Origin: Cognaticolwellia sp.
GTDB lineage: Bacteria; Myxococcota_A; UBA796; CAJQPC01
Length of the DNA stretch: 48,432 nt
Reading direction: 5' to 3'
Assembly (NCBI GenBank): GCA_047621545.1
Contig: JBLHMA010000002.1
Location: 1-48,432 of the forward strand
Of this stretch, positions 999-34,186 are shown in pieces (position 1 is the stretch's first letter; every line of letters starts with the position of its first letter). The translations under genes and the position numbers were made by a program. The notes beneath the pieces are model-generated. The model did no database searches, was not told where the DNA came from, and worked only from the letters and a program-made list of their open reading frames with translations.

Positions 999-1498
999 GG
1001 TTGCCCCTGGGGAGGAGGCAAGCGCCAGAGGAGGTGGCGCTTGTGGCGGGTCAGCGTCACGCCAGTAAACACCAAAGGCGGCCCCATTCTCCACCCTTCC
1101 ACATAGTAAGCTCTGTTGGAGCGGGCGTCCATATAGAGCGCCACTGCAGGTGCCAAAGGATAACTGACCCTAAGACTCAAGAAATGGAGAGCCGCGCTCG
1201 AGTACGTGTCCCCCAGAATATACCAGCTGTTGGCCCAGCCCCGCCCCGCTCCTGCACAGACCCAAAGACGCTCCTCGACGCACAACGACACAGAGACTGC
1301 GCGGTATATACCGGGCAGCCCTTCAACGGCCAACTGTGCTGGACCGATGCTCCTACGAAGATGAACAGACGGATAATAGGACAAACTGCCGCGAGAAATC
1401 CCTCCACCAACTTCCCAAACAGGCTGCCGACTGCGGTCCACCTCTCGTACATCATCGATGGCAGCGAAGGCGGGCAGACAGAGAACAAGGGCGATCAT
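995..1498 (-). CDS. Secreted beta-rich hypothetical protein (167 aa), paralog of 453..998
   Basis: Signal-peptide-like start MIALVLCLPAFAAIDD, followed by the PVWEVGGG motif. Its ATG overlaps the stop of the 738-aa gene as ATGA (1495-1498). Confidence 0.6.
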   Translation of the reverse strand: MIALVLCLPAFAAIDDVREVDRSRQPVWEVGGGISRGSLSYYPSVHLRRSIGPAQLAVEGLPGIYRAVSVSLCVEERLWVCAGAGRGWANSWYILGDTYSSAALHFLSLRVSYPLAPAVALYMDARSNRAYYVEGWRMGPPLVFTGVTLTRHKRHLLWRLPPPQGQP

Positions 1499-3711: not shown

Positions 3712-3714
3712 GGC

Positions 3715-4056
3715 CTACTCCTTCGCCACAAGGTCGAGGAGAGCAACGGGGTCACCCGCAAAGGTCCCAACCCCCGCGACGCGAACGAAACGCATAAAGG
3801 TGGTCGTATCCAAGACACCCCCTGTACCGTTGCTATCTACAACCCAGGAGATGCCAGGGATGTCGATGTAGGCCCCCTCCTCGTCGATTGCGGCATGTTG
3901 AACCACAAGCTGTGCACCAGCCGTGCCGCTGCCAGCCTTAAGCAGCCGAAGGTGGAACACCACTTGCCGGTATGCTCCCAAATCCACTGCGTCCTGGCTC
4001 TGGGGGCCTTGGGTGATGGTTCCTGCATCCATGAGTCGTACGTACTGTCCTGCCAT
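3715..4056 (-). CDS. Hypothetical small protein (113 aa), first gene of the operon
   Basis: Clean ORF with high third-position GC. It has no signal peptide and a beta-rich composition. Its stop lies 3 nt before the ATG of the 738-aa gene. I recognise no family. Confidence 0.65.
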   Translation of the reverse strand: MAGQYVRLMDAGTITQGPQSQDAVDLGAYRQVVFHLRLLKAGSGTAGAQLVVQHAAIDEEGAYIDIPGISWVVDSNGTGGVLDTTTFMRFVRVAGVGTFAGDPVALLDLVAKE

Positions 4057-4189
4057 CTTTGTATCTCCAAGCTGGTTTCGCTATCGAAGAGCTCGAAAGC
4101 GACGTTCGCCCCCCCCAATCGATGAGACATAAGGAACATGCCATGCTTTCCCTTGGTCGTCAATGAGATTCCAGAGAAAAGACCAAGCC

Positions 4190-4600
4190 CTACTTCCCGT
4201 CCCGCACCGGCACCCCAAACTTGCCAAAGTGCTCGATCAAGATGTGCCCAGCGATGTAGTTCGTCGCCAAGGGGACCTCGTGCACATCACACAGTCTCAT
4301 GAGCATCTGCACATCGGGTTCGTGGGGGTGCTTGTCCAGTGGGTCGCGGAAGAAGACCACTCCTTGCACCTCCCCCTTGGTGACCATCGCGGCGATCTCC
4401 GCATCTCCGCCAAGCGGTCCAGAGTGCACACGCTCGACCTTGGTGATGCCAGCATCCAAGATCAGAGTGCCGGTGGTTCCGGTGGTGACAATGTCCACCT
4501 CCTCCCGGTTGAAGAACTCCAGGCGCTTCATGACGAAGGAGACCATCGAGGCCTTCTTTCCGTCATGGGCAATCAGGGCGACGCGCATCCGCTTCGGCAC
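4190..4600 (-). CDS. mgsA: Methylglyoxal synthase
   Basis: 136 aa with the hallmark MgsA motifs ALIAHDGKK, TTGTTG, GPLGGDAEI and FFRDPL..HPHEPDV..L.RL..VH.VPLATN. Confidence 0.93.
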   Translation of the reverse strand: MPKRMRVALIAHDGKKASMVSFVMKRLEFFNREEVDIVTTGTTGTLILDAGITKVERVHSGPLGGDAEIAAMVTKGEVQGVVFFRDPLDKHPHEPDVQMLMRLCDVHEVPLATNYIAGHILIEHFGKFGVPVRDGK

Positions 4601-4624
4601 AGCAGCTCCAGGCTTTGGGCAAGC

Positions 4625-5461
4625 TTAGCCTCTGGTGGAGTAGAGACCCACACCTTGTGCACCAGCCGTGACATCCCAGCCCAGGTAGTCCACGGGTCCG
4701 GACTGCATCAAAGACAAGATGCGTCCCTGTCCCACGGCGTCCGTGGCAGCCAGGAGCCCGACCAGCTCTGCGCTGGGCTCTCCGATGTCCAACTTGGCGC
4801 CATCCTTCAGTCCCTCCGCGCCTATGCGAATGCTCGCGAAGCGCTGGGCGTCCTCCAGCTCAAGCTCTTGCAGCCGGGCAATGGTGGCTTGGGGGATGGA
4901 GCGCGTTGGCAACCAGGCAAGCGTGCGTTGCCAGCCAGGAGCACCGGGAGGCTGGGCAAAGTACAGCTTGTGCTCCAGGGCCCGACTCTCCCCTTCAAGC
5001 GTCCAAGACTGCGCCACGAAGTGCACCTTGGGGCAGCCCAGAATCTGCGCGGTGTGGGCAATGCCAAGCAGGCTCTTGCGGTCCACGCCGTCCTGGTTCA
5101 ACCACTGCAGCACGGTCTCCACAGGAGGGCGGCGGCGGAAGTAGAGCGAGATCTCCCGGGGACCGCTGGCCCCAAAGTCCACCTTGAGAAAGACACGCCG
5201 GCCCTCGAAGCGGTTCATCCACAGAGTCGCCCGCGCGAGGTCGGGCCGGCCCGCGTTTTGGAGCCCGAAATGCGCCATCAGCCGCAGCACCCGCTCGCAG
5301 TAGTCCGGCCCGTCTCCGTTGATCATCGCGCCCACACCACCCCGGTGGCTGTGCACGGAGAGCTCCAAGGGGGCCACCGGCTCCAAGAAGCGCACTAGGT
5401 CCAAGCCAGGCTGAGTCGGGAGACCTTGGTGGACGAGCAGATCGCTGAGACGTTGGTGCAT
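4625..5461 (-). CDS. Hypothetical protein (278 aa), possible PT-barrel (ABBA prenyltransferase-like) architecture
   Basis: Five beta-hairpin-like segments recur, separated by helical stretches: FLKVDFGASGPREISLYF, VHFVAQSW...HKLYFAQP, FASIRIGAEGLKDGAKLDIG, LGWDVTAGAQGVGLYS. The fold assignment is inference only. Confidence 0.7.
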   Translation of the reverse strand: MHQRLSDLLVHQGLPTQPGLDLVRFLEPVAPLELSVHSHRGGVGAMINGDGPDYCERVLRLMAHFGLQNAGRPDLARATLWMNRFEGRRVFLKVDFGASGPREISLYFRRRPPVETVLQWLNQDGVDRKSLLGIAHTAQILGCPKVHFVAQSWTLEGESRALEHKLYFAQPPGAPGWQRTLAWLPTRSIPQATIARLQELELEDAQRFASIRIGAEGLKDGAKLDIGEPSAELVGLLAATDAVGQGRILSLMQSGPVDYLGWDVTAGAQGVGLYSTRG

Positions 5462-5470
5462 CTCTAGAGC

Positions 5471-6067
5471 CTACTCCGGCGACCTGGGCGGCGGCACCAT
5501 CAAGGACAGCCCTCCCTGCATCTCCCAGGCAGCGAGCTGCTGGACAGGAACGCCGCCAGAGCGAATCTCCGTGCGGCGTAGATCTCCAAACACGCGCACC
5601 ACGGGCACCAAAGCGATGCGGTCACCCCAGACCGGAATGGCCACCCCGCTCTCAATACCGATGACCGGAATGACGGTGTTGGCGACCAGCTCTCCGCTGT
5701 CCTCGTAGCGGCGCACCGAGACCCCACCCATGGCCGTGAGGATGGGACTCCACGGCCCGCCAGCAGCCCACTGGGCGCAGATCAGCGTCTCCACTGGCTG
5801 CAGCGTTCGCTCTTCTCCCAAGCGGGGCAGGGGGCGCGGATAGCCCCAGTCGACCTCCACCCCCAAGCGAACGCCAGACGGAGTGGTCACACCGCCACGG
5901 ATCCAGGCGTTGGCACCCCACCAGGTCGCGTCACGGCGGGCCACGACAAAGCTGCCCTGAACCCAGGGGGCCGACGCCAACTCCACAGCGCCAAACAGGC
6001 CCCCTCCTTGGGGACCTGTTCCAGTAGGGACAGCCAGCGCAGCCCCAACCAGCAAACCTGCGATCAC
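5471..6067 (-). CDS. Secreted beta-rich hypothetical protein (198 aa), possible small OM beta-barrel
   Basis: The GTG start overlaps the sucB stop as GTGA (6064-6067). N-terminus is [16 protein letters not shown], followed by an alternating beta-strand pattern. Confidence 0.65.
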
Positions 6068-7254
6068 ACCTCGAGGAGGATGCGCTCAGGCGCCTCGACC
6101 AGCTGCTTGACCTTGACCAAGAAGCTCACAGCCTCTCGCCCGTCGATGATGCGGTGGTCGTAGGACAGGGCCAGGTACATCATCGGACGCAGCTCGATGT
6201 TGGTGCCAACCGCCACGGGGCGCTGCTGCATGGCGTGCATGCCCAAGATGGCGACCTGGGGTGGGTTGATGATGGGGGTGCTCATCAGGGAACCGAACAC
6301 ACCCCCATTGGAGATGGTGAAGGTCCCGTCCTTGAAGTCGTCCATCGTCAGCTTGTTGTCCCGCGCGCGGCCGGCCAGCTCGCGGATGCCACCCTCGGTC
6401 TGGGCCATGCTCAGACGGTCGGCGTCGCGCAGCACCGGCACGGTCAGGCCCTTGGGCCCCGAGACCGCGACACCGATGTTGTAGTAGCGCTTGTAGAGGA
6501 TCTCATTGCCGTCGATCTCGGCGTTGGCAGCAGGGAACTCCTTGAGAGCTTCCACGCAGGCCTTGACGAAGAAAGGCATGAAGCCCAGCTTGAAGCCGTT
6601 CTTCTTAACGAAGGCGTCCTGGTAGGTCTTGCGCAGGGCCAGGATGCCGCTCATGTCCACTTCGTTGAAAGTGGTCAGCAACGCAGCGTCTTGCTGGGCC
6701 TGAACCAAGCGGCGCGCGATGGTGCGCCGCAGCGGGCTCATCTTGACGCGCTCAACGCGGCGCTCGCTCGGGGCCGGTGCGGGCTGAGCCACTCCACCAT
6801 TGGCCACCGCAGCCGCCTGCTGGCCGGCGTCCACGTCACCAGAAAGAATGCGACCGCGCTTGCCAGAGCCAGCGACCGTGGTCAGGTCAACGCCCTTTTC
6901 GGAGGCGGCTTGGCGGGCGGCAGGTCCAGCCGGTCCACCGGGGGCGGCATCGGAGACAGGAGCCGCAGGAGCCGCAGGAGCCGCAGGAGCCGCAGGAGCC
7001 GCATCGCCCCTGGCCTGGGTCTCATCGATGCGAGCGACCACAGTGCCGATATCAACCTCGTCGCCGTCTTCACCAATGAGCTCGGTGATGACGCCGGAGA
7101 CAGGCGAAGGAACGCCCATGGACGCCTTGTCGGAGTCGATCTCCAAGACGGTGTCACCAGCGTTTACGTAGTCCCCAACGGAGACGGCAAAGCCGGCAAT
7201 AAATACGGAGGGAATGGACTCCCCCACTTGCGGAATCTGCAGTTCGGTGGCCAT
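6064..7254 (-). CDS. sucB: Dihydrolipoyllysine-residue succinyltransferase (2-oxoglutarate dehydrogenase E2)
   Basis: Lipoyl domain with [15 protein letters not shown], an Ala/Pro linker, and a catalytic C-terminus with [13 protein letters not shown]. Start set at the internal ATG ([13 protein letters not shown], cat at 7252-7254). The Arg/Pro-rich 56-codon upstream extension of the ORF looks non-coding. Confidence 0.95.
6957..7003. repeat. Perfect 9-bp tandem repeat (agccgcagg, about 4.8 copies) inside sucB, encoding the (AAP)n linker
   Basis: Read directly: agccgcagg occurs 4 times at 6961-6996, plus a partial fifth copy. It translates on the minus strand to [16 protein letters not shown]. 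Confidence 0.9.
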
Positions 7255-7321
7255 GAATTGAGAACCTTTGAAACGTGAGTCGAAACGGGGGGCGTGAGGG
7301 GCTCTGCCCCGCACACGACAA

Positions 7322-10123
7322 TTACTTGGAGACGGTGAGGGCTTCGTCGGTGAAGCGTGCCTGAGCCGCCTCGGATGCCTTCTTGTAGCCGGGTGCCGGG
7401 GAGGCGGCAGGGCGACGACCAATGTACCGGGGCTGGCGAGTCATGGGCAGCTGCTCTCGCAGCCAGTCCCCGTACACGGGCCAGACGCCCATGTTCCGAG
7501 GCTCTTCCTGAACCCAGCAGACTTCGGCGTCGGGGTAGGCATCGAACTGCGCTTGCAGCAGCGCCCCTGGGTAGGGGTAGAGCTCTTCCACCCGAACCAA
7601 GGCGACATTGTCTACACGGCGCTCACGGCGCTCCTCCAGCAGGTCGAAGTAGACCTTTCCGGAGCAGAGGACCAGGCGTTCCACCTTGCCGACCATGTCG
7701 GTCTCACCAATGACAGGCTGGAAGGCCCCATCGCTGAGCTCTTCCAGGGTCGAGGTCGCCAAGGGGTGACGCAAGCCCTTCTTGGGGGTGAAGACCACCA
7801 GAGGCTTGCGGGTCCTGCGGAGACCCTGACGGCGCAGCAGGTGGAAGAAGTTGGCCGGAGTGGTGCAGTTGGCCAAAGTCATGTTGTCCTCGGCCGCCAG
7901 CAGCATGTAGCGCTCAATGCGCGCGGAGCTGTGCTCGGGGCCCTGATGCTCAAAGCCGTGCGGCAGGAGCATCACCACGCCGGTGCAGCGGTTCCACTTC
8001 TGCTCGGTGGAGGCGATGAACTGGTCCACCACCACCTGCGCGCCATTGGCAAAGTCGCCAAACTGGGCCTCCCACAACACCAGAGAGTCGGGGTAGTCCA
8101 GGCTGTAGCCAAACTCAAAGCCCAGGACTGCAGCCTCGGAGAGCAGGGAGTCCAACACCTCAAAGCGGGCCTGTCCCTCTCGGAGATTGTCCAAGGGGAA
8201 GTAGGGCTTGCCGGTCTTGGTATCGGTGATGTTGGCGTGGCGGTGAGAGAAGGTGCCGCGGCCCGAGTCCTGGCCACTCAGGCGAATACGAATGCCCTGT
8301 GCTGCTAAGGTGGCAAATGCGGCCTGCTCGCCAACGTCCCAGTGCATGGGCCGCTCACCCTTGACCACCGCGAGGCGGTCATTCATCAAGCGCTGGATCT
8401 TGCGGTGGGCGTCCAGGCTGTCCGGCAGGGTGTTGGCCCGGGTCAGCAAGGCACGCAGCGCATCCAAATCGTAGCCGGTGTTGGGCTCTGGAGCGTCAGG
8501 CTGGCGGTACTCCTGCCAGAGCTTGCCCATCTTAGAGCTGACGTTGCCAATGTACGAGTCCTGAGCGCCGTCGACGGAGGCGTCGTTCATGCGCTTCTTG
8601 GCGTCGTTGTGGATCTGGTCGGCCTGCTTCTGGGTAATGCGACCGCGCTCCACTAGGGTGCCGGCGTAGACCTGACGGGCGGTGCTGTGGGCCTTGATGG
8701 CCTCGTACAACAGGGGCTGGGTAAAGCTGGGCTCGTCGCCCTCGTTGTGGCCGTACTTGCGGAAGCAGAGCATGTCGATGACCACGTCTTGTCTGTAGCG
8801 CTGGCGCCACTCAACCGCGACCCGGGTGACAGCTGCCACAGCCGCGGGGTCCTCGCCATTGACGTGGAAGATGGGCACGCCGAGCATGCGGGCCACGTCG
8901 GTGGCATAAGGGGTCGATCGGGCATCCTTGGGGGACGTGGTGAAGCCGATCTGGTTGTTGATGATCACATGCACCGTGCCACCGGTGCTGTAGCCCTGGA
9001 GCCCCGAGAGATTCAGGGTCTCGGCGACCACGCCCTGTCCCGCAAAGGCCGCGTCACCGTGCAGCATCAGGCCCATGCACAGCTTGTCGGCGTCCCCTCC
9101 CGGGTTCTCGTAGCGGTGGCGGTCCTGCTTCGCGCGCACCCGGCCGGAGACGACAGGGTTGACGATCTCCAGATGGCTGGGGTTAAAGGCCATGTTCAGG
9201 TGGATGCTGCCCGTCGCAGTCTTACGGTCGGTGCTGTAGCCCAGGTGGTACTTCACATCGCCGGAGCCGTTGAACTCGTCATTGGAGTCCTTGCCCTGGA
9301 ACTCTTTGACGACCATCGCCGGTGGCTTGCCGAAGATGTTGACCAAGGTGTTCAAGCGACCGCGATGTGCCATGCCCACAATGATCTCTGCCACGCCAAG
9401 CTCGGAGGCATACTCGACGAGGTTGTCGAGCAGAGGAATAAGGGTCTCTCCTCCCTCCAAAGAAAAGCGCTTTGTTCCCGGAAACTTCGTGTGCAGCATG
9501 GTCTCGAAAGCCTCGGCCTCCGAGAGTTTTCGCAGCACGCGCAGCTCGCCATCCATGTCCAAGATCGGCTCATCGTGCAGGGTCTCCAGGCGCTTTGCAA
9601 CCCAGAGCTTCTGCTCCACGATGGGGAGGTTCCGGTACTCCACACCAAAGCTGCCGCAGTAGGCCCGCTTGCAGCGCTCGATCACCTTTCGGAGGGTGCT
9701 CTGCTCAGCGATACCAAAGAGGGGCTGGGTGTTGACCGTCTTGTCGAGATCGGACTCGCTCAGGCCGTAGTAGCGCAGGGAGAGCTCGGGGTGCTCCTTC
9801 CGGCCCAGGCGTCCCAAGGGATCGATGTCCGCGACAACGTGGCCTTCCACTCGGTAGGCGTTGATCAGCTGTGCGACCTTGGCCTGCAAGGCTGCCGCTT
9901 CTGGATCCACGGCCCCAGCAGAAGGCGCGCTTCCCCCCGGAGAAAAAATCGACGGCGAGGCAAAGCTAGGCCGTGCCGTGGATCCTTGTGGGGTCCCCTG
10001 CTCCGCGAAGAGCTGGGCCCAGTCGGCAGTGACCGACTTAGGATCGGCCAGCCAAATCTGGTAGAGGCCATCGATGTAGGCGGCGTTTTCGCCAGTCAGC
10101 AAAGACTCCAAAGACACGAGCAT
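7322..10123 (-). CDS. sucA: 2-oxoglutarate dehydrogenase E1 component
   Basis: 933 aa. N-terminus [20 protein letters not shown], ThDP region [20 protein letters not shown], and a transketolase-like C-terminal half. It sits immediately upstream of sucB. Confidence 0.97.
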
Positions 10124-10220
10124 GCTCCCGAAGGTGGTGTGCAGGCTAACCCTGTCGGACGCGCGTGCACGTACCCAAGGCTGACTGTCTTATGTCACCG
10201 CGCACACCCCGGGAGTTTTC

Positions 10221-10544
10221 ATGACCGAGCTTGAGTTCCGCCGCTACGTCTCCGAAGTGCTGGAGGCTCTGTTCGAGCAGATCGATGAACTGGACCCCGA
10301 CGAGCTCGACCCCACCTTTGCGGCCGGGGTGCTCAAGGTCGTCTTTGAGAAAGGCGGAACCTTCGTGCTCTCACAGCAAGTACCGGTTCAGGAACTCTGG
10401 CTCAGCGCGAACAGCACGGCGTGGCACTTCAAGTACGTCGACCAGGTCTGGGTCGAGCGGGACACAGCCGAGCCCATGTTGCCCCTGCTCTCCAAGCTCT
10501 TTGGCGAAAAAATGGGTGAAACGGTCACACTGTCGCTGGACTGA
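10221..10544 (+). CDS. cyaY: Frataxin-like iron-sulfur cluster assembly protein CyaY
   Basis: 107 aa, colinear with E. coli CyaY as I remember it: acidic helix EF..Y....L..L.EQIDELD, GVL.V.FE.GG.F.LS.Q.P..ELWLS, WHF. Confidence 0.88.
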   Translation: MTELEFRRYVSEVLEALFEQIDELDPDELDPTFAAGVLKVVFEKGGTFVLSQQVPVQELWLSANSTAWHFKYVDQVWVERDTAEPMLPLLSKLFGEKMGETVTLSLD

Positions 10545-10634
10545 GCTTGGGCCAAGCGGGCCAAAACTAGACTGCTTGAGTCGCCCACGTTGGAAGGTCG
10601 AGCTACCGTTCTGATACCTGGATGGAGAGCTGAC

Positions 10635-11489
10635 GTGCGCAAGACCTTTGCTTTGATGCTTTGCTGCTTTGGCCTGCTCTTCTCCTCAATGGCTCTGGCC
10701 GAAGTGCCCGACGCCACTTGGGACACGCTGGTCGGGCAGTCTGTGCTGTTGACAAATCCCCAGGGCAAGGAGATCCGCGGGACCCTGTTGGATGCCCAGG
10801 GAGAGACGCTGCGCATCGAGCGCGCGGACGGTAGCGTGGTCACGGTGGGCAAGTCCGAGGTGATCACAGCGAAGAACCTGGCGGTGTACACAAGCATCTC
10901 CGGTGAGCTCAAGGAGCCCGAGCCGGCCCCTGCCGAACCCACTCCGCCCAAGGCCACCGAGGTCCCTTCGGAGGCCACGCTCGGCCGCGACACCTCTACG
11001 GAGCCAGAAGTGGAGACAGAAGTGGAGCCAGCGCCGGTCAAGACTGATTCTGCCGAGCCGCTTCCCTCCGAAGACCAACCTTTCTCCATCGGCGTCCCAG
11101 TCCCCAATCCGGAGCTGGAGATGCAAGACGCCGTGGCTGGAGAAGTGGATGGAAGGGCGGCAGCGCAGATGCAGTCTCTGACCGGCCCCACCGCTGTGAG
11201 CGCCGGAGTCGGCATCGCCGCTGGAGCCATTACTCCCCTGTGTTGCTGCGCGGCGCCCTGTGCAGCGGCTGGCCCAGTATTTTACGGCCTGCAAAAGGTT
11301 GACCTCGTCGACCCCGGCGGCACCAAGACCTACAACGACGCGTACAACAACGCCTACTCCTCCGAGCTTAAGAAGCGCCGCTGGATCTGGACCGGCGTGG
11401 GTGCCGGAGCTGGCTTGTTGGTGGGCATCGGCGTGGGCTACGCGACAATGCTGACTGTGGACAACACCAACCTTCAGCCGGTCTTCTGA
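10635..11489 (+). CDS. Secreted protein: small beta domain, acidic Pro/Glu-rich linker, and a C-terminal Cys-containing two-helix membrane module
   Basis: GTG at 10635 is preceded by GGAGAG and gives the signal peptide VRKTFALMLCCFGLLFSSMALA/EV. The C-terminal approx. 110 aa are homologous to the C-termini of the next two genes (NDAYNNAYSSELKKRRWIWTGVGAGAGLLVG). Confidence 0.75.
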   Translation: MRKTFALMLCCFGLLFSSMALAEVPDATWDTLVGQSVLLTNPQGKEIRGTLLDAQGETLRIERADGSVVTVGKSEVITAKNLAVYTSISGELKEPEPAPAEPTPPKATEVPSEATLGRDTSTEPEVETEVEPAPVKTDSAEPLPSEDQPFSIGVPVPNPELEMQDAVAGEVDGRAAAQMQSLTGPTAVSAGVGIAAGAITPLCCCAAPCAAAGPVFYGLQKVDLVDPGGTKTYNDAYNNAYSSELKKRRWIWTGVGAGAGLLVGIGVGYATMLTVDNTNLQPVF

Positions 11490-11491
11490 GC

Positions 11492-12700
11492 ATGCTCGCC
11501 TTTCTACTAAGCACCGCCATGGCTCAAGAAGCACCCTCAACAACGGCCCCAGACCAAGAAGGGCCTGCCCAGGAAGCACCGGTTCCTGAAGCGCAAGCAG
11601 ATACGCCAGCCCCCAGCCCGCCTCCACCAACAGCCGAGGTCCTGCCCATCGCAGAGGCGCCTTTTGCTTGGGAACGCACACTGACCGCCCAGCACTGTCC
11701 CGCCGGCGGCTTTGACTTGAGCAAGGATGTCGAGGCCCCCATGGACGCGGTCCTGCTGCTCAAGGACAAGGAGGGAACCGGCAGCGGCGTGCTGATCAGC
11801 CCAGATGGTGTGGTGCTCACGGCAGCCCACGTGGTCGGAAAAAAGGAACGGGTCAAGGCTCTGACCCAGAGCGGCGAAGAGCTCACCCTGGAGGTGGTGC
11901 GTACCCACCCTTTCTACGATGTGGCCGTTCTAAAGGTGGTCGACGGCCCCGAAGAGCTCCCCTGCCTACAGCTCTCGGAGGTGCGGGCCACGCTGGGAAC
12001 CAGCGCCTACGTCATGGGTTCTCCTGCAGGCGAAGAACTCAGCTTCTCCGTCAGTCGTGGCATCGTGAGCGGCCGACGTGAGATCGGCGGAAGGAGCTTC
12101 CTGCAGACCGACGCAAGCGTGAACCCCGGCAACTCGGGTGGCCCGATGGTCAACGAGCAAGGCCAGGTCATGGGCATCGTGAGCTGGAAGGTGGCAGCCA
12201 CCGAGTACGAGGGACTGAGCTTTGCGGTCCCCGCGACGCGCGCCATGGAGTTTCTTGGCATCGAGACTGCGGACCAGACCGACCTGAACGAGCCAGGAGT
12301 CCGAATCGCCCCTGGGGCTGCGATGAACGAAGGCAAGGACGGGGAGTACCAGCGCGGCTTCGAGGCCGGGCGCCTGGCGGCAAAGAGCACCCCTTGGCTG
12401 GGCCCAATGGGCGTCGGAGCGGCGGCAGGCTGCGCAGCAGGCTTTACCCTGGGTCCATGCGGCGCCCCCATACTCTGCTTGGCCCCCGGCGCCGCACTGG
12501 CGTCTGTGGATGTGCCTGAGCTACCCGCAGACGACGCAGCAAACGACAGCTATCAGCGAGGCTACCTCTCCGGCTTCCAGGTCCAGACCCGACTGCGGCG
12601 CGCGGCCTACACCACAGCAGGCGCAGCTGGCGGCCTAATCGTGGGTAGCGCAATCGCCCTGACAACAGTCGGCGTGAGCTTCGGACCCTTCGCGCAGTGA
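11492..12700 (+). CDS. Trypsin-like (S1C/HtrA-type, no PDZ) serine protease with a C-terminal two-helix membrane module
   Basis: Signal peptide MLAFLLSTAMA/QE. Catalytic motifs are VVLTAAHVV (His), YDVAVLKV (Asp) and TDASVNPGNSGGPMVN (Ser). The start lies 2 nt after the upstream stop. Confidence 0.88.
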   Translation: MLAFLLSTAMAQEAPSTTAPDQEGPAQEAPVPEAQADTPAPSPPPPTAEVLPIAEAPFAWERTLTAQHCPAGGFDLSKDVEAPMDAVLLLKDKEGTGSGVLISPDGVVLTAAHVVGKKERVKALTQSGEELTLEVVRTHPFYDVAVLKVVDGPEELPCLQLSEVRATLGTSAYVMGSPAGEELSFSVSRGIVSGRREIGGRSFLQTDASVNPGNSGGPMVNEQGQVMGIVSWKVAATEYEGLSFAVPATRAMEFLGIETADQTDLNEPGVRIAPGAAMNEGKDGEYQRGFEAGRLAAKSTPWLGPMGVGAAAGCAAGFTLGPCGAPILCLAPGAALASVDVPELPADDAANDSYQRGYLSGFQVQTRLRRAAYTTAGAAGGLIVGSAIALTTVGVSFGPFAQ

Positions 12701-13806
12701 ACCTGGGCCTGCTCCTGGCGCTCTTTCCCGCCGCAAGCGCCCAGTCAGAAGCGCGCCAATTGACAGTGCAGACCTGTACTGAGACCTCCTCCCCCAGCCA
12801 AGCCTTGGGCGCCGTACTGCGTACCCGCCATGGCAGCGCCGTGCTCATCAGCTCTGATGGGGTCGTCCTGAGCAACACCCAGTCCATCGGCCAGGACTGG
12901 TCCCGCCCCATTCAGGCCTGGGCCCCCAGCGGCACACCGCTGACCCTGAATGTCGTACGGGTGGACACCACAACCCAGAGCGTGCTGCTCAAAGTACAAG
13001 GGGAGCAGACTTGGCCTTGCCTGCCCCTGAATACGGCTGAGTTCTCCCTTGGAGAGCCTGCCTATGTCTTGGGCTTTCCAGATCTCACGGCACCGCCATC
13101 CATCAGTCTGGGTATTGTCTCCGCCAAGCGCCAAGTCGCTGGTCGACCGGTCATCCAGACGGACGCTAGCGTGAACCCCCGCAACACCGGCGGCGCCCTG
13201 GTCAACCAAGAGGGCCAAGTCTTGGGCCTGGTGAGCAGCAAGGTCTCCGGGGTCGCCTACGAAGGCCTGGCTTTTGCAGTGCCTGTCGACGAAGTGTTGA
13301 AGGGCTTGAAGCTCAGTATTGCCCCCCAGACTGACCTTACAGACCCAGGCCTCTTGCCCCAGTACAGCCCAGCGCAGGCCGGCACAAACCAGGCCACCTT
13401 GGGCGCAGAAGCCGGCGTGGCCGACGCCCGCTCTGCCTTTCAGCCGCTTCGCCCCCTGGTCCTGGGCGCCGGCGCTGGCGCCTGCTTGGGCTTCGCAGGC
13501 TGCCTGACCCCTTGCGTGGGTCCTGCCTGCATGGTGCCCACTGGAGCCTTGGCTCCAGCCGCCCTGGCTTTTGCCCAAAAGCCCAACATCGACCCGGCCG
13601 TGAACGCCGCCCTGGAGAGCACCAGCCCGGACTACCAGTTGGGCTACGAGATTGCCTACGGCCTGGAGACCCGTAAGCGTAGGGGGCTGTACACCGGCGC
13701 TGGTGCCATCGCCGGGACCTTTGTTGGGGCAACTGTGGGCACCTTGGTGTACATCGCCGTCATCGGCGTGACGCCATGGGACCGAATCGAGATTCCAAAC
13801 TTCTGA
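12697..13806 (+). CDS. Trypsin-fold pseudoprotease (catalytic triad replaced) with the same C-terminal membrane module
   Basis: The GTG start overlaps the upstream stop as GTGA. It aligns with 11492..12700, but the motifs read VVLSNTQSI (His to Gln), TQSVLLKV (Asp to Gln) and TDASVNPRNTGGALVN (Ser to Thr). Confidence 0.85.
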   Translation: MNLGLLLALFPAASAQSEARQLTVQTCTETSSPSQALGAVLRTRHGSAVLISSDGVVLSNTQSIGQDWSRPIQAWAPSGTPLTLNVVRVDTTTQSVLLKVQGEQTWPCLPLNTAEFSLGEPAYVLGFPDLTAPPSISLGIVSAKRQVAGRPVIQTDASVNPRNTGGALVNQEGQVLGLVSSKVSGVAYEGLAFAVPVDEVLKGLKLSIAPQTDLTDPGLLPQYSPAQAGTNQATLGAEAGVADARSAFQPLRPLVLGAGAGACLGFAGCLTPCVGPACMVPTGALAPAALAFAQKPNIDPAVNAALESTSPDYQLGYEIAYGLETRKRRGLYTGAGAIAGTFVGATVGTLVYIAVIGVTPWDRIEIPNF

Positions 13807-13979
13807 GCAGGCATCAAGGGGTCAACGCAGTCTTGCGTTCAACCCTTACACCCTCGATCAGGCAGACTGACCACATGCGAGGCTTGCGCTCGCACGCCTC
13901 CGCTGCGTTCTTCGCCCTTGAAATGCTTGCGTATTCCTTCGTTCTAACGCCTTGCGGAGTCGCACTCCGCTGGCGCCTC

Positions 13980-14822
13980 TCACGGATCATCTTGCCTGAC
14001 CGAGGGTGTAATGCTCGCTTCGAGATGTTTCCGGAGAGCCGCGATGTGCGCTGGTCCCGTGCCGCAACATCCGCCGATGACCTGCGCGCCCAGGTCCCTC
14101 CAAGACGTTGCATGCTCGGCGTAGCGCTCCGGCCCCCTCGGATCTCCCCAACCCAGACCATCCTCTGGCTTGCCAGCGTTGGCGTAGATCCCCCAAGGCA
14201 ACCCCGTCTCCGCCAGCGCTCGGGCATAGGGCAACGCATAGGCAGCCGGTAGGCAGTTCACCAGCACCACCTCGGCCCCAGCATCCCCCAGCGACCTAGC
14301 CCCGTCGGCAAGCTGGCACGGAGACATCAGACTGTTGTCATAGCCGGGAGTCAGGGCCGACCAAACCTGGGAGATGCAGGATCTTGCCGCGGTGGTCGCA
14401 GCCAAGGCTTCGGAGAGGTGGGGATGGGTCTCAACCAAGAGCAGGTCCACGCCCTCTTCCACAAGTGCCTGGGCCAGCGCAAGGTGCTCGGGCCCAGGAT
14501 TTAGAGGTGAGAGGTCCGGGCGGTAGCAGTCCTGCAGAGGCGCCATGCTGCCCGCCACACGGCCGCCGCCAACCTGGGCCAGCTCCACAGCGACCTGCAC
14601 CAACGCTCGCCAACTTGGACCTGCATTCCGCTCGTGGCATCGAAAGGTGTTGGCCGTGTGAACCTGTGCCCCTGCGGCACAATAGGCCTGGTGCAGATCC
14701 ACCACCGCCTGGGGCCGGTGCTTCAAGGCCCAAGCGCTCCAAAGAGGCGCAGGCGCTGGCACCCCTTGGGCGATGAGTTGGGTTCCGATTGGGCCGTCTA
14801 ACAGGAGCATCCTTAGCAACAT
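13980..14822 (-). CDS. Homocysteine S-methyltransferase family protein (MmuM-like)
   Basis: MLLLDGPIGTQL N-terminus, a VNC Cys, and the C-terminal GGCCGTGPAHI zinc-site motif. Start chosen at an internal ATG (MLLRMLLLDG); 14810 is an alternative. Confidence 0.85.
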   Translation of the reverse strand: MLLRMLLLDGPIGTQLIAQGVPAPAPLWSAWALKHRPQAVVDLHQAYCAAGAQVHTANTFRCHERNAGPSWRALVQVAVELAQVGGGRVAGSMAPLQDCYRPDLSPLNPGPEHLALAQALVEEGVDLLLVETHPHLSEALAATTAARSCISQVWSALTPGYDNSLMSPCQLADGARSLGDAGAEVVLVNCLPAAYALPYARALAETGLPWGIYANAGKPEDGLGWGDPRGPERYAEHATSWRDLGAQVIGGCCGTGPAHIAALRKHLEASITPSVRQDDP

Positions 14823-15545: not shown

Positions 15546-16343
15546 GTGTCTGACTTTCAGAGCGCCCTGAACTGGGCTCCCATCGGTGAGAACATATGGA
15601 GCGGAGGGATCGACGACACCTGGCGTCAGGGACGGGCTGCCTACGGCGGTTTGCTGGCTGCCCATGCCCTAAAAGCGATGCAGGCCATCGTGGCCCAAGC
15701 CCGGCCTGCCCGTTCACTGCAGGTCGTCTTTGTCGCCCCTCCGAAAGAAGGCGTCCTAAAAGTGCAGAGCACCCCGCTGCGCGAGGGACGCAACGTGAGC
15801 CTGGCCCAAGCGCGTATCACCCAGGGGGAGCACCTCATCTTGAGCGCCACTGCTGCCTTTGGCGCCGACCGCCTCTCGGACATCCAGGTCGAGCCCAAGC
15901 CCGCGCCCAGCTTCAAAGCGCCTGATGCGTGTATGCCCCTGCCTTTCCTACCGGGCATGACCCCCAACTTCACCCAGCACCTCGACTACCGCTGGGTCGA
16001 AGGTGGCTTTCCCTACAGCGGTCATTCTACGCCGGGTATCACTGGCTACTGCCGACACAAGACCCGGGTCGACGATCCAGCCCTAGCTCTGGTCGGCCTG
16101 GCTGATGCCTGGCCAGCCCCCATCCTGCCCTTGGCCAAGGGACCGGCGCCGGCCAGCTCGGTGACCTGGAACCTGCAACTCCTGCAGCTGCCCCAAGTGC
16201 CCCAAGCCGCTTGGTGGACGATGATCTACGACGCCGACCAAGCCCAGGCCGGCATGAGCACCGTCACCGGGCGGCTCTACGCCCCCGACGGCTCCCTTGC
16301 AGCGATCTCAACCCAGCTCACGGTGGTGTTTGACAAGCGCTAA
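15546..16343 (+). CDS. Acyl-CoA thioesterase (TesB-like double hotdog family)
   Basis: 265 aa with a GTG start. The W..GRAAYGGLLAAHALKAM motif and the protein size are typical of thioesterase II-like proteins. Confidence 0.75.
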   Translation: MSDFQSALNWAPIGENIWSGGIDDTWRQGRAAYGGLLAAHALKAMQAIVAQARPARSLQVVFVAPPKEGVLKVQSTPLREGRNVSLAQARITQGEHLILSATAAFGADRLSDIQVEPKPAPSFKAPDACMPLPFLPGMTPNFTQHLDYRWVEGGFPYSGHSTPGITGYCRHKTRVDDPALALVGLADAWPAPILPLAKGPAPASSVTWNLQLLQLPQVPQAAWWTMIYDADQAQAGMSTVTGRLYAPDGSLAAISTQLTVVFDKR

Positions 16344-17847
16344 GCCAAGCTTCGCGAAAGATTTTGCCAAGGTCCTGGGGATCTTTGCAGTCCTATGGTC
16401 TTTGCTCTACCTACCTCTGGCCATCGGTGTACCCACCGCCGACCACGACCCGAACCTGGGGGCCATCGCCCTTCAGGCACGGCACTGGCAGGAGAGCGGC
16501 AGCCCCCAGCGATTCAGCATTCTCTGGGGCGGTGGCACACTCTTCTCGGGCCTGGTGGAGCAGGCCCCTTGGTCACCGGCGGTGCTCCTGGCCCTGGTGC
16601 TTGGGCCCAAGGCTGGTGGGATGGGCTGGATGTGGGCCCAACTCAGCTTTGGTGGTGCCGCGCTCTACGGCTGGTTCCGCAGCGAAGGGGCCAAGCACCA
16701 CCCGGCTCTGGTTGGCGCAATCGGGGCGTGGTGCACCCTCTGGCTGGCCCGACACGCCATCGATGGTCACCTGGCTTGGGGCGCCTTTGCCCTGTGCATC
16801 TCCCTTGGATGGACCTTCGCCAAAGGCCCAAAGTGGATGCCGCTCTGGACCGGACTGCAGGCCCTTCTGCTGCTCAGCTCCAGCCACCTGCAGGCCCCGC
16901 TCTACGGCTGGCCGGTCGTGCTCTTCGGCATGGCGCTGGGCTTACGGCGCCACCCCACCCAAGTGCTCTGGGGTGTCGCAGCCTGCGTGCCCGCCCTAGC
17001 GTTGCATGGGCGACTCTGGGCAGACGCTTGGCGCGCCGGACAACTCTACGAGCGCGGGCAACTCATCGCCGCTCAGGACGTGCGCTTTGCCACCGGATGG
17101 GCCCCAAAGCTGCTTGGCATTCTGCTCCCAGGAGCCAGCTACGGAGCACACGCCGAAGGCAACCTATTGGCCCTGCTCCCGGCCCTTTTTGCAACCAAAC
17201 GCTGGCCCCAGAGGTGGGTATGGGGTGCGGCCGCCGCCCTGATCGCCTTGGCTCTGATCCCCAACGTGGGGCCCTTTCGCCAGGCCGAGCGCCTGCTCTG
17301 GGGCCTGCCTCTACTGGCGGGCTGGCACCTGGCTCAAGCACCGCTTCCACAGTGGGCAGAGCGCCTGAGCCTGGGCTTGGGGGTCGGCGGCGCGGCTCTG
17401 CTGATGGCTCTCCGGATGGTAAGTGGACTCGGAGCGCCGACGGGGCCTGAGCCGGCGCCGGGGATTCAAGGCGTGGCTCTGCCCCAGCAGAGCTACGACA
17501 TCAGCGAGGCCTACATAGGTGGCCTGGTAGCGCAGATTCAAGCGGGCCAAGTCGTGCACCGGCCTGCCGGGCACCTGGCACTGGAACAGGTCCCCGAGCG
17601 CGGGACTAGCCTGTCTCTAAGCCCAAACTTCCACGCCAAAGGCACCGACCCGCGCCTGGTTGTGACAGGACCCTGGGAACCCGGAAGCCTAGTCGTTCTG
17701 CAGCTCCGTGACGGCGGCTGGCAGGTCTCGGGCTGTGCGGCGCTGAGGACCGAAGGGCGGTGGCTCTTTCTAGTGGGTACGGGACGATGTTCCGCAGTGA
17801 CCCTGACGCTGAGTTCATTGCCTGATCAAAAAACACCGCCGGATTGA
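16330..17847 (+). CDS. Polytopic integral membrane protein with a C-terminal extracytoplasmic domain (GT-C-like?)
   Basis: More than 10 hydrophobic segments. The first loop reads PTADHDPNLG. The start is uncertain: TTG at 16330 overlaps the thioesterase stop, and the ORF is open from 16297. The stop TGA lies inside the first copy of the 16-bp repeat. Confidence 0.7.
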   Translation: MTSAKPSFAKDFAKVLGIFAVLWSLLYLPLAIGVPTADHDPNLGAIALQARHWQESGSPQRFSILWGGGTLFSGLVEQAPWSPAVLLALVLGPKAGGMGWMWAQLSFGGAALYGWFRSEGAKHHPALVGAIGAWCTLWLARHAIDGHLAWGAFALCISLGWTFAKGPKWMPLWTGLQALLLLSSSHLQAPLYGWPVVLFGMALGLRRHPTQVLWGVAACVPALALHGRLWADAWRAGQLYERGQLIAAQDVRFATGWAPKLLGILLPGASYGAHAEGNLLALLPALFATKRWPQRWVWGAAAALIALALIPNVGPFRQAERLLWGLPLLAGWHLAQAPLPQWAERLSLGLGVGGAALLMALRMVSGLGAPTGPEPAPGIQGVALPQQSYDISEAYIGGLVAQIQAGQVVHRPAGHLALEQVPERGTSLSLSPNFHAKGTDPRLVVTGPWEPGSLVVLQLRDGGWQVSGCAALRTEGRWLFLVGTGRCSAVTLTLSSLPDQKTPPD

Positions 17848-19288: not shown

Positions 19289-19918
19289 ATGACCTTGCTC
19301 CTGCTCAGTCTGTTCGCACTGGATGTCCCCGACCAGGCCATTGAGTCCTTGGAAGATGTGGCTGCCCCCGACCCAGGCGAGTCGGCCTATGCCACCTGCG
19401 GCGGCTGTCACGGTGCCCAAGGGCAAGGCAACCCAGCCATGAATGCGCCTGCTCTGGCAGGCCAGGACGCCGACTACACGGCGCGGCAGCTGCGCAACTA
19501 CAAGGCTGGCATTCGCGGTGCTGATCCCGAGGACGTCTACGGTGCACAGATGCGGGGCATGTCCAATGTCTTGATCGAAGACGCGGCCGTGGTGGCTGTC
19601 TCCGAGTACATCGCCACCCTTGAGCGTCCATCTGCCGCAGCCACAACAGCCACCCAGGCCGAGCTAAGCGCGGGGCAGAGCGCCTACATGAACTGCGTGT
19701 CGTGCCACGGCCAGAATGGCCAGGGCAACCCCGTGATGATGGGACCTGCCTTGGCCGGCCTGGATGCCCCCTATGTTGAGCGGCAACTTGAGCACTTCCG
19801 CGCCGGTCGCCGCGGCGCCCACACCGAGGATGCATGGGGCGCCAGCATGGTCCCCTTGGCCAAGCAGCTCGATGCGGAGACTTCCGTGGCCATCGCGGCC
19901 TACTTGACCAGTCTATAG
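19289..19918 (+). CDS. Diheme cytochrome c4-type protein
   Basis: Signal peptide, two CxxCH sites (CGGCHG and CVSCHG), each followed by G.GNP.M..PALAG.D..Y...QL...G.R. GGAG lies 7 nt upstream of the ATG. Confidence 0.9.
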   Translation: MTLLLLSLFALDVPDQAIESLEDVAAPDPGESAYATCGGCHGAQGQGNPAMNAPALAGQDADYTARQLRNYKAGIRGADPEDVYGAQMRGMSNVLIEDAAVVAVSEYIATLERPSAAATTATQAELSAGQSAYMNCVSCHGQNGQGNPVMMGPALAGLDAPYVERQLEHFRAGRRGAHTEDAWGASMVPLAKQLDAETSVAIAAYLTSL

Positions 19919-19924
19919 GCCGCT

Positions 19925-20053
19925 CTAAAGCACGCCGAAGCGGTAGGTCTCCGCCAGGGTGTTGCTCTCGGGTGCTGTCAGCACGAGCCAGAGCCCCACC
20001 CCCGCAACCACCAGGAGCGCGCCGCCAATCCAGAGCCAGAGATCCTTGGACAT
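19925..20053 (-). CDS. Possible small membrane protein (42 aa)
   Basis: My own translation gives MSKDLWLWIGGALLVVAGVGLWLVLTAPESNTLAETYRFGVL*. It has one clear TM helix and high third-position GC. It is too short for the ORF track and has no strong ribosome-binding site. Confidence 0.35.
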   Translation of the reverse strand: MSKDLWLWIGGALLVVAGVGLWLVLTAPESNTLAETYRFGVL

Positions 20054-20083
20054 GTCGCCAGCCTACACCGAGAAACACCCCCT

Positions 20084-20923
20084 GTGCCGCGCACCCTAAA
20101 GAACCTGCTCATGTCGCTGTTCACCGCCCTGGTTGTCCTAGGTGGTACCGAGCTGCTGCTCAATCTGGCGGACTGGCCGGCGCCGTCGGTCTACGTCGAC
20201 GGGCACCGGCCCATCTGGACCCTGCGCCCCAACGTGGACTTGGAGCTGAGGCACCACGAACTGAACCGAGACTTCTCAGTCCACGTAAGCGGGGTCGGCT
20301 TCCGCGGACCGGAGCCCGTCTCACCACGCATCGCCTGCCTGGGCGACTCCACAACCTTTGGATGGGGCGTCACTCAGGAGCCAGCTTGGCCCAGCATTCT
20401 TGGAGACGAGCTCGGCGTAGAAGTCCTGAACGCGGGGGTACCCGGCTACTCCACACACCAAGGTTTAGCGACCCTGGACCGGGTGTTGGCGCTCAACCCG
20501 GATGTGGTGGTCCTGGCCTACATGATTCGGGATGCGGATCCGGCGCCCATTCCCGACGCCCAGCAACGCGATTCAGGCCCAGCGCACCCTCTGCAGATGC
20601 AGCGCGCGCTGGTGAGTTTGTTGCCCACGCCCGCTCCTGCGCCACCCATTGGAGACACCCAGCGGGTGCCGCCCCTGCTCTATGGGCAAAACGTCGATAC
20701 GCTCACGCGGCGCATACGGGCCTCGGGGGCGCAGGCAGTCTTGTTGAGCTTCCCGGTACAGGAAGACCGAGGCGCCCACCAACAGGTCCTGGAGGAGCGC
20801 GGTGCTCTGAGCCCCGAGCTCCCGGCACAGGCCTTCTTTGCAGAAGACCCCCTCCACCTGAACGTGGATGGCAACCGCCTGCTGGCAGCGTGGCTGGCCG
20901 AAGAGCTGCCCCCCATGAATTAG
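20084..20923 (+). CDS. SGNH/GDSL-family hydrolase
   Basis: Block I IACLGDSTTFGWG, block II NAGVPGYST, block V DPLHLN. N-terminal TM/signal segment. The start may instead be the ATG at 20111. Confidence 0.85.
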   Translation: MPRTLKNLLMSLFTALVVLGGTELLLNLADWPAPSVYVDGHRPIWTLRPNVDLELRHHELNRDFSVHVSGVGFRGPEPVSPRIACLGDSTTFGWGVTQEPAWPSILGDELGVEVLNAGVPGYSTHQGLATLDRVLALNPDVVVLAYMIRDADPAPIPDAQQRDSGPAHPLQMQRALVSLLPTPAPAPPIGDTQRVPPLLYGQNVDTLTRRIRASGAQAVLLSFPVQEDRGAHQQVLEERGALSPELPAQAFFAEDPLHLNVDGNRLLAAWLAEELPPMN

Positions 20924-20983
20924 GCTGTCGTGCTCTGAAGAGAGCTAGGCTGCCGTGCTCTGAAGAGAGTTAGGCCGCCGAAG
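20921..20983. repeat. 25-bp tandem repeat (2 copies plus a partial third) between convergent genes; each unit holds a small hairpin
   Basis: taggctgtcgtgctctgaagagagc (20921-20945), taggctgccgtgctctgaagagagt (20946-20970), taggccgccgaag (20971-20983). Each full unit contains gctct-gaag-agagc (5-bp stem, 4-nt loop). Unit 1 begins with the SGNH gene's TAG stop. Confidence 0.9.
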
Positions 20984-25800: not shown

Positions 25801-26013
25801 CTTGAGATCTCCGAGGGGTGCTAATGACGACGTTCTGTACCTTTCAATCGGCTCTACCAAAGGTGGACTTGAGGTCTGGATACGTCGCACCATCAGCAAT
25901 CAGCCTGACCTACCGCACATGGCCCCGCAAGTGGTCATGTGAACTCATAGGTGACAGGTGATCGCGAGAAGCCGCACGGGGTAAGGATTTCCGACAATCT
26001 TTCACCATGGTGT

Positions 26014-34172: not shown

Positions 34173-34186
34173 CGCCGATCAAGGGA

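Follow-up and report, generated by a model that had tools for sequence, protein, structure and literature searches.

A previously uncatalogued glycine-zipper module at the C-terminus of a predicted HtrA-type protease, its pseudoprotease paralogue and a small barrel protein

Why should three consecutive genes, coding for predicted exported proteins with different N-terminal domains, all end in the same kind of Gly/Ala-rich hydrophobic segment? The question is raised by genes A, B and C, located between positions 10635 and 13806 of the first 48,432 nucleotides (nt) of contig JBLHMA010000002.1 (GenBank assembly GCA_047621545.1; Cognaticolwellia sp., GTDB lineage Myxococcota_A), a stretch referred to throughout as the window. 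In this study, we report that the C-terminal segments of the three proteins belong to a previously uncatalogued module, of the known general kind in which a glycine-zipper membrane insert is used as a C-terminal anchor. The module follows a small beta barrel in A, a predicted active HtrA-type protease in B and a catalytically dead paralogue of that protease in C. The coordinates of all features are listed in Table 1.

The shared C-terminal module

The modules of A, B and C are 120-140 amino acids (aa) long (about 125 residues) and show a pairwise identity of 31-35%. Their local alignment scores were 14-16 standard deviations above those of 500 residue shuffles, none of which (0/500) reached the observed value, and BLASTP with composition correction gave E = 6e-3 for A-B, 1e-8 for A-C and 1.5e-10 for B-C. 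As the scores lie so far over the shuffles, the three modules are homologous beyond an effect of composition. A profile made from the three sequences also recovered unrelated family members with E = 1e-16 to 1e-10.

The preliminary description of the locus, made from the letters of the DNA, had claimed both that such a module is shared and that it is unrecognised, and both claims held. Scanning of 32 family members against Pfam found nothing on the module above threshold; the best was Gly-zipper_YMGG (PF13441; 2 of the 32 members, best E = 0.038, 14.1 bits against a cut-off of 28.9), with Gly-zipper_Omp (PF13488) in one member (E = 0.033) and no match of the 2TM model PF05433. No module family was found for the same members in NCBIfam (E <= 0.1, among the matches listed, 25 of 37 families), and PHROGs gave no module match. 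A sequence-profile search of the PDB with the module reached E = 1.2 at best, and Foldseek of the module model against the PDB reached E = 3 with a template modelling (TM) score of about 0.3, with no match at E <= 0.001 and no SlyB entry among 25 matches.

The database search that the preliminary description had proposed was carried out with a profile, exhaustively, on 1.84 billion representative proteins (E <= 1e-3). It yielded 30 clusters, of which 29 are genuine; the remaining cluster, P0022, is a spurious match to a repeat protein. Most of the matches are 135-240 aa long: the N-terminus is short, hydrophobic and closed by A-x-A, an acidic stretch may come next, and the module makes up the rest. 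The architecture of A, with barrel, linker and module, occurs in 7 matches, and protease domains only in the orthologues of B and C. Since most members are thus a signal peptide and the module alone, the module is an autonomous evolutionary unit. With 29 genuine clusters the family is rare and taxonomically narrow, and modules group by type (A, B or C) across genomes. Members are named 'hypothetical protein', where named at all. NCBI labels, available for distant members only, are Myxococcota, 'Proteobacteria' and 'Alphaproteobacteria' metagenome-assembled genomes, and the family belongs to uncultured, probably Myxococcota-like bacteria.

Two independent AlphaFold2 (AF2) runs, one on the C module and one on full-length A, gave the same pattern of three membrane helices and two surface helices. 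Here the preliminary description needed revision, as it had recognised a two-helix module. The module begins about 20-25 residues earlier than had been supposed, at an amphipathic helix with the motif Y-x-x-G-[YF]-x-x-G; in place of the single first helix described there, a helix-turn-helix hairpin is predicted, whose turn is surrounded by the cysteine cluster, and the supposed loop D-x-Y-x-x-G-Y...RRR is predicted to form a helix continuous with the last glycine-zipper helix. An hhalign comparison of unit 1 (surface helix and first zipper helix) with unit 2 gave a probability of 94.8% and E = 5.5e-8 over 40 columns. BLAST also picked up the repeat, aligning the first helix of B with the second helix of C in a secondary match, and GxxxGxxxG runs could be read from the alignment in both units. 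The module therefore reads as an internal duplication of a Y-x-x-G-Y-x-x-G helix plus a GxxxG-zipper helix, with an extra helix between the units that would close the hairpin.

Cysteine is distributed very unevenly along the module. Within 31 modules, 99 of the 101 cysteines fall in the hairpin columns, where they cluster around the turn and make up 7.9% of residues; each member has 1-4 of them, and hence at least one, often vicinal or in a G-P-C-G-x-P turn. The last helix matches the hairpin in its content of Gly, Ala, Val and Leu and has almost no Cys. Such strict confinement shows that the cysteines are under selection. They may have a metal-binding or disulfide role.

Among known systems, the module most resembles in kind SlyB/Pcp, YfgH and OsmB of the glycine-zipper clan (PF05433, PF13441, PF13488, PF13436), which share marginally hydrophobic, Gly/Ala-rich GxxxG helices in a membrane-inserted hairpin, charges that are all periplasmic, an expected oligomerisation and a link to the envelope and stress, which for the module is drawn from its fusion to HtrA domains and from the clpB neighbours described below. 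The module differs from these lipoproteins in that no model matches it at threshold, Foldseek finds no fold match and no lipobox or lipid anchor is present; moreover, its three buried helices and two Tyr/Gly surface helices form an internal repeat instead of a two-helix hairpin, its Cys cluster lies around the hairpin turn, and it stands C-terminal to varied passengers. The sorting tags MYXO-CTERM, GlyGly-CTERM and PEP-CTERM likewise place hydrophobic Gly/Cys segments at the C-terminus of exported proteins, proteases included, in the same broad bacterial group. They are, however, about 25-35 aa long, with a single helix between one signature motif and a basic tail, whereas the module has 120-140 aa, three helices and a tail with 0.1 Lys/Arg on average. 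No NCBIfam sorting-tag model matched A, B or C (E <= 1), or the 32 members among the matches listed, and no sortase-like gene was seen adjoining the module genes.

Passenger domains and the gene trio in related genomes

The passenger domains of the three proteins agree with the preliminary description, in which A was given a small beta domain with an acidic linker, B an active trypsin-like protease and C a dead paralogue. B carries a Trypsin_2 domain (Pfam, E = 2.3e-31) and resembles HtrA/DegP/DegS (MEROPS S1C) in its fold, its His, Asp and Ser, its GNSGGP motif and its predicted export. Its best NCBIfam matches are the Do-family/HtrA, DegS and HhoA models, all far below cut-off; the HtrA/DegP (Do) model TIGR02037 scored 130 bits with B and 75.5 bits with C against a cut-off of 416, and its catalytic His-Asp-Ser is present in B and missing from C. 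Both proteins differ from HtrA/DegP/DegS in that no PDZ domain was detected in either (Pfam, E <= 1, where protease families were the only matches), the C-terminal regulatory region being replaced by the membrane module. The anchor of DegS is N-terminal, whereas that predicted for B and C is C-terminal.

C is 39% identical to B overall and matches Trypsin_2 with E = 7.3e-18 (Pfam). The catalytic residues are lost in all four aligned orthologues of C (Ser replaced by Thr or Ala), while the flanking motifs stay conserved, which indicates that C is a maintained pseudoprotease. Identity of C to its orthologues is 73-83%, and a protein under such constraint though dead must have a non-catalytic role. 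An invariant Cys pair common to the protease domains of B and C (C69/C158 in B) would fit a periplasmic disulfide and thus an oxidising location.

By analogy only, the B/C pair resembles MamE/MamO, in which a membrane-associated active HtrA protease is encoded with a triad-less paralogue that is kept for a non-catalytic role (PMC4794232). The NCBIfam models of MamE and MamO (NF040960 and NF040961, cut-offs 800) gave 66.8 and 48.3 bits with B and 32.5 and 21.7 bits with C, covering the protease core only. No magnetosome gene was found among the window open reading frames (ORFs) scanned. MamE carries PDZ and magnetochrome domains, and MamO carries TauE. In B and C none of these extra domains was detected by Pfam, and the anchor is the C-terminal module.

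The full-length model of A, calculated by AF2 with 17 homologues, shows a signal helix, a barrel at residues 26-85 and a disordered linker before the module. Foldseek placed the barrel with Hfq and Sm proteins of the PDB (probability 1.00, E about 1e-2, TM score on the target 0.7-0.8), on which it superposes with a root mean square deviation of 1.3-1.8 A over about 59 residues. By sequence, only weak RimP_C and Lepto_7_Nterm matches were obtained (Pfam, NCBIfam). The predicted N-terminal domain of A is therefore Sm/Hfq-like at the level of the fold, with no significant sequence-family match. Only 8 homologues of gene A were found in 5.8 billion proteins, none with a protein name.

The gene limits and the close spacing reported in the preliminary description are correct. 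The TGA of A is followed by GC and the ATG of B, a gap of 2 nt. B and C overlap in a GTGA that contains both the start codon of C (GTG) and the stop codon of B (TGA). Gene A starts with the GTG at 10635, preceded 5 nt upstream by the Shine-Dalgarno-like GGAGAG, and its orthologues open with MRKTLAL. A signal peptide had also been assigned to each product, and, read by eye from the sequence, the N-termini of A, B and C do present a hydrophobic stretch ending in A-x-A (...SMALA/EV in A, ...TAMA/QE in B and ...AASA/QS in C, the slash marking the predicted cleavage). None of the three has a [LVI][ASTVI][GAS]C lipobox at the cleavage site, which reads instead as a signal-peptidase-I-type A-x-A.

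The trio is retained in six related lineages outside this genome, all within a narrow clade, so that the co-occurrence anticipated in the preliminary description was found, and its spread is confined. The identity of A given for them in Table 1 leaves out L001, where A is cut by the contig end. In L019 the B orthologue (5594-6547) is broken by a run of N, and in L020 the C orthologue (6952-8062) is frameshifted within the module, possibly by an assembly error or as a pseudogene. Two loci, L003 and L004, were set aside, as they are ordinary HtrA matches (33% identity) and the family hidden Markov model (HMM) was negative on all their ORFs.

The trio is reduced in L005/L006, where A is followed by P0002 and a LIP-family protein. 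P0002, whose module is 54% identical to that of C, corresponds in L005 to C reduced to a 178-aa protein of signal peptide and module (8798-9334). The position of B is held there by the LIP-family protein (PF03583; 9336-10643), which has a lipoprotein-like N-terminus (...LALAC) and in which no module was found. In the distant loci L009-L012 an A-type gene stands alone, with no second module gene within 8 kb by the family HMM. In each of these loci (about 6300-10400) it is flanked by a divergent B12-binding radical SAM gene of 522 aa and followed by an amine-oxidase / NAD_binding_8 gene of 459-468 aa, which in L010 overlaps the stop codon of the A-type gene.

Neighbouring genes and other features of the window

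The gene cyaY, for a frataxin-like iron chaperone, lies directly upstream of A, in the same direction, at eight loci of the clade (window, L002, L005/6, L007/8, L018, L019, L020), and the linkage persists in L005, where the proteases are gone. We treat cyaY as a conserved neighbour of A-B-C; its constant position may reflect simple synteny or point to a connection between iron and thiols. The other upstream neighbours are sucB and sucA on the minus strand, and C is followed downstream by a homocysteine S-methyltransferase gene (minus strand) and an acyl-CoA thioesterase gene. The G+C content of the window is 62-65%. No RNA gene was found in the whole window with Rfam, and a scan of positions 10000-14300 gave no sigma-70 promoter-like sites and terminator-like sites at chance level only, with none at gene ends.

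Outside the window, small module-only genes adjoin clpB divergently in three lineages (L013; L016; L014/15 and L017), in which the ClpB proteins are 73-77% identical and the module proteins 30-42%. In L014/15/17 the module gene is present as two diverged copies in tandem. The divergent adjacency suggests co-regulation with the heat-shock disaggregase. No CIRCE element was found in the clpB/module intergenic regions or upstream of A (at least 8 mismatches everywhere). A sigma-32-like CTTGAA-N13-CCCCGCTT points towards the module gene pair in L017 (about 3430-3470); it is absent from the clpB/module intergenic regions of the other loci and from the region upstream of A, and occurring only in L017 it was not used as evidence.

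Long antisense ORFs, of up to 953-971 aa, are a feature of these high-GC genomes, and one pair aligned at 54% identity. Very long examples lie opposite sucA in the window (8687-10234, plus strand) and opposite clpB in L013 (3116-5977, plus strand). An ORF of about 960 aa upstream of the L013 and L016 module genes was accordingly rejected as a conserved unknown protein, since its composition is odd and the opposite strand encodes ClpB.

Elsewhere in the window, and unrelated to the module, are two adjoining FG-GAP repeat proteins (24229-25899 and 26091-27620, both minus), a DUF1800/DUF1501 pair (32865-35329, plus) and a two-domain cytochrome c (19289-19918, plus). Several large ORFs had no Pfam match at the thresholds used: 1495-3711 (minus), 4163-5398 (plus), 16297-17847 (plus), 19834-20973 (plus), 35342-36982 (minus) and 36970-38889 (minus).

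Table 1. Features of the A-B-C locus, the helices of the C module, and related loci. Positions are those of the window unless a locus or module numbering is given; pLDDT, predicted local distance difference test; pTM, predicted TM score.
Feature	Position	Strand	Description and evidence
cyaY (frataxin-like)	10221..10544	+	Directly upstream of A, co-directional; ORF, and PF01491 for the homologous gene in L005, L007, L018, L019, L020
Gene A	10635..11489	+	284 aa; signal peptide, Sm/SH3-like small beta barrel, acidic disordered linker, C-terminal module; ORF, start site, AF2 model
A signal peptide	10635..10700	+	aa 1-22 (...SSMALA/EVP), predicted Sec; sequence reading, hydrophobicity peak 2.05, A-x-A site
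A small beta barrel	10710..10889	+	aa 26-85, predicted Sm/Hfq-like fold; AF2 pLDDT 91-94
A linker	10890..11087	+	aa 86-151, acidic, Pro/Glu-rich, disordered; AF2 pLDDT <50 for residues 85-151, composition from sequence
A module	11097..11486	+	aa 155-284; AF2 helices 159-179, 183-199, 206-218, 231-276; alignments; HMM E = 1.3e-33
A Cys cluster	11241..11261	+	C203-C204-C205 and C209 at the predicted hairpin turn; AF2 turn at residues 200-205
Gene B	11492..12700	+	402 aa; short signal peptide, Pro-rich linker, predicted active HtrA-type S1 protease without PDZ, C-terminal module
B protease domain	11729..12256	+	aa 80-255; catalytic H113, D143, S215 (GNSGGP); Pfam, NCBIfam; triad kept in four orthologues
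B module	12326..12697	+	aa 279-402; Cys 314, 323, 329 (12431-12478); alignments; HMM E = 8.4e-33
Gene C	12697..13806	+	369 aa; short signal peptide, catalytically dead HtrA-type paralogue, C-terminal module
C pseudoprotease domain	12823..13302	+	aa 43-202; His to Q62, Asp to Q94, Ser to T164; alignment with B and orthologues
C module	13381..13803	+	aa 229-369; AF2 with 31-sequence alignment, mean pLDDT 87.4, pTM 0.73
C Cys cluster	13483..13530	+	C263, C269, C273, C278 around the hairpin turn; Cys positions, AF2
C module, surface helix	module residues 4-19		Tyr/Gly, amphipathic; family motif Y-x-x-G-[YF]-x-x-G; AF2
C module, first zipper helix	module residues 23-42		First glycine-zipper helix; AF2
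C module, turn	module residues 43-47		T-P-C-V-G; AF2
C module, return helix	module residues 48-65		Return helix of the hairpin; AF2
C module, short helix	module residues 72-78		AF2
C module, long helix	module residues 83-130		D-Y-x-x-G-Y-x-x-x-Y, R-K-R-R, then G108/G112/G116/G120 zipper; AF2
Trio loci	L001, L002, L007/8, L018, L019, L020		sucA(-) / cyaY / A / B / C / methyltransferase(-); A 58-68% identical to window
Reduced loci	L005/L006		cyaY / A / 178-aa module-only P0002 / LIP-family protein; no protease domain; A 47% identical to window
Lone A-type loci	L009-L012		One NCBI-labelled Myxococcota; A-type gene alone, divergent B12-binding radical SAM gene / co-directional amine-oxidase-like gene; A 27-32% identical
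clpB / module gene	L013 3251-5863 / 5914-6399	- / +	Small module-only gene divergently adjoining clpB (TIGR03346 above cut-off)
clpB / module gene	L016 3000-5690 / 5757-6209	- / +	As for L013
clpB / module gene	L015 (L014/15) 2336-5047 / 5110-6393 (tandem module gene pair)	- / +	As for L013
clpB / module gene	L017 678-3326 / 3516-4574 (tandem module gene pair)	- / +	As for L013

Predicted membrane placement, possible co-assembly and competing explanations

With one extra hydrophobic helix between the repeat units, the two Tyr/Gly helices are expected on the same side of the membrane as the passenger. The charges agree with this: over the 31 modules, the mean number of Lys/Arg per sequence is 6.2 on the passenger side (the part preceding the hairpin together with that separating it from the last helix), 0.7 in the hairpin columns and 0.1 in the C-terminal tail. 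Export and membrane insertion of A, B and C are predictions, and two routes remain, namely Sec stop-transfer into the inner membrane with an odd charge pattern, or complete export, after which the module would enter one of the two membranes from the periplasm. We favour the inner membrane by a little over an even chance. The proteins have no lipobox, nor another recognised way of reaching the outer membrane; a place in the inner leaflet of the outer membrane, by analogy to the SlyB-type glycine zipper, is distinctly less probable.

Our preferred reading, to which we give an even chance of being right, is that the module both anchors and oligomerises, tethering a PDZ-less HtrA protease, a pseudoprotease and an Sm-like barrel to the membrane. 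Insertion and oligomerisation through the GxxxG faces are proposed on the basis of what is known of glycine zippers (Kim et al. 2005) and of the precedent of SlyB and YfgH, glycine-zipper membrane inserts that oligomerise under envelope stress (bioRxiv 10.64898/2025.12.22.696046). The ancestral unit, which would have been duplicated internally, paired a Tyr/Gly helix at the membrane interface (Y-x-x-G-Y-x-x-G) with a GxxxGxxxG zipper helix behind it, and the third hydrophobic helix between the units would form, with the first zipper helix, the hairpin that bears 1-4 cysteines around its turn. After Sec export, the passengers, both Tyr/Gly helices and the conserved R-R-R cluster would remain on the periplasmic face, with the uncharged hairpin and the last helix buried in the membrane. 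The three diverged modules would then probably pack through their glycine zippers into an A/B/C hetero-oligomer. Such an assembly would keep B at the membrane to serve protein quality control in the envelope, together with C as scaffold or regulator and A as an adaptor that may form rings.

We infer that A, B and C probably co-assemble, with C and A scaffolding or regulating B. Counted in favour were the translational coupling of the genes, the retention of the trio in six other lineages, the GxxxGxxxG runs in both units of the module and the tandem pairs of diverged module genes in L005/L006 and L014/15/17. A precedent for control by a dead paralogue is MamO, which activates the active protease MamE (PMC4794232). 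A role in envelope proteostasis or stress is suggested by the fusion to HtrA domains and by the proximity of other members to clpB.

Several observations weigh against this reading. The charge pattern is the reverse of that expected from the positive-inside rule for an inner-membrane protein with its N-terminus out and its C-terminus in. A simple Hessa-scale sum places most segments at +1 to +5 kcal/mol, marginal for stop-transfer (first segment +0.8 to +6.4, last segment -2.5 to +4.0 kcal/mol); these sums we take to be similar to those of a SlyB-type zipper, from a hand calculation on a SlyB sequence. The signal peptides of the family are unusually short, at about 11-16 aa (P0007-P0029; window 11492-11524 and 12697-12741), and most lack a Lys/Arg n-region, as in MLLLLTALAMA/QDP. 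The confidence of the AF2 model of the C module is lowest around the hairpin turn (means of 10-residue blocks 69-77). The clpB link comes from other subfamilies, and the window ORFs scanned include no clpB; no ORF of the window would be long enough for one. Lastly, the A-type gene is alone in the four distant loci L009-L012 and both protease domains are missing from L005/6, so that the module does not by itself imply a complex of three parts.

These last two cases equally favour the view that each module is an independent tether, perhaps homo-oligomeric, with no joint A/B/C complex and with a linkage of the genes that reflects co-expression and common descent. The single small module genes adjoining clpB in L013 and L016 are in keeping with it, as is the divergence of the modules, which cluster by type at the low mutual identities given above, the C module being closer to the module-only P0002. 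We nevertheless consider it somewhat unlikely, since the genes of the trio are translationally coupled, the dead protein C is under constraint and needs a non-catalytic role, and tight pairs of diverged module genes recur in unrelated contexts. A far smaller chance, very slight in our judgement, is given to a secreted membrane-active peptide, a bacteriocin-like or pore-forming precursor with signal peptide, acidic pro-region and Gly-rich C-terminus that B would process. Many members are indeed made up of a signal peptide, an acidic stretch rich in Asp, Glu and Pro, and the module, and glycine zippers reportedly occur in pore formers; but in A, B and C the module is attached to folded periplasmic domains, its neighbours are housekeeping genes (sucAB, cyaY, clpB) in conserved synteny, and no immunity, ABC-exporter or toxin-type neighbours turned up, PADLOC and toxin libraries not having been searched.

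The cysteines admit a further explanation, compatible with the preferred reading of an anchoring and oligomerising module. They might bind a soft metal or an Fe-S cluster, or form regulated inter-subunit disulfides, which would make the module a sensor or transfer site to which the protease responds. Their confinement to the hairpin, with at least one in each member, speaks for this, as does the frequent vicinal CC or C-x-C followed by Pro within a Gly/Ala-rich membrane helix, a pattern that resembles the CC..P motifs of MerT and MerF. The module differs from MerT/MerF, however, in its variable number of cysteines and in its helix count and architecture; by family model there was a single weak match, of one member to MerT_CopZ_Se (NF045683, E = 0.016), and no mer or cop genes were found nearby. 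Neighbours with an Fe-S flavour, namely cyaY at eight loci, the radical SAM gene beside the distant A-type genes and a Fer2 protein adjoining L013, and the precedent of MamO as a metal-binding pseudoprotease (PMC4794232), lend this explanation some weight. Yet the number and positions of the cysteines vary, with no fixed C-x-x-C-type ligand set, the weak family matches are not significant, and the cyaY linkage is limited to one clade and may be plain synteny; on balance we hold a metal or redox site to be unlikely. A wider reading, which we regard as slightly more doubtful still, would combine hetero-oligomeric envelope rings with clustered thiols that form a metal/Fe-S centre or a redox switch, gating a PDZ-less HtrA protease through its dead paralogue, and would take the cyaY, clpB and radical SAM neighbours as functional links.

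HtrA proteases are normally regulated by PDZ domains. In B the place of the PDZ region is taken by a membrane module that also occurs in a pseudoprotease and a barrel protein, which, if the preferred reading is true, would be a different way to localise, and possibly to control, envelope proteolysis. Definition of the module family would annotate small envelope proteins of uncultured bacteria, some of them NCBI-labelled Myxococcota, and the Cys hairpin together with the recurrent clpB neighbourhood suggests a testable stress link for small glycine-zipper proteins.

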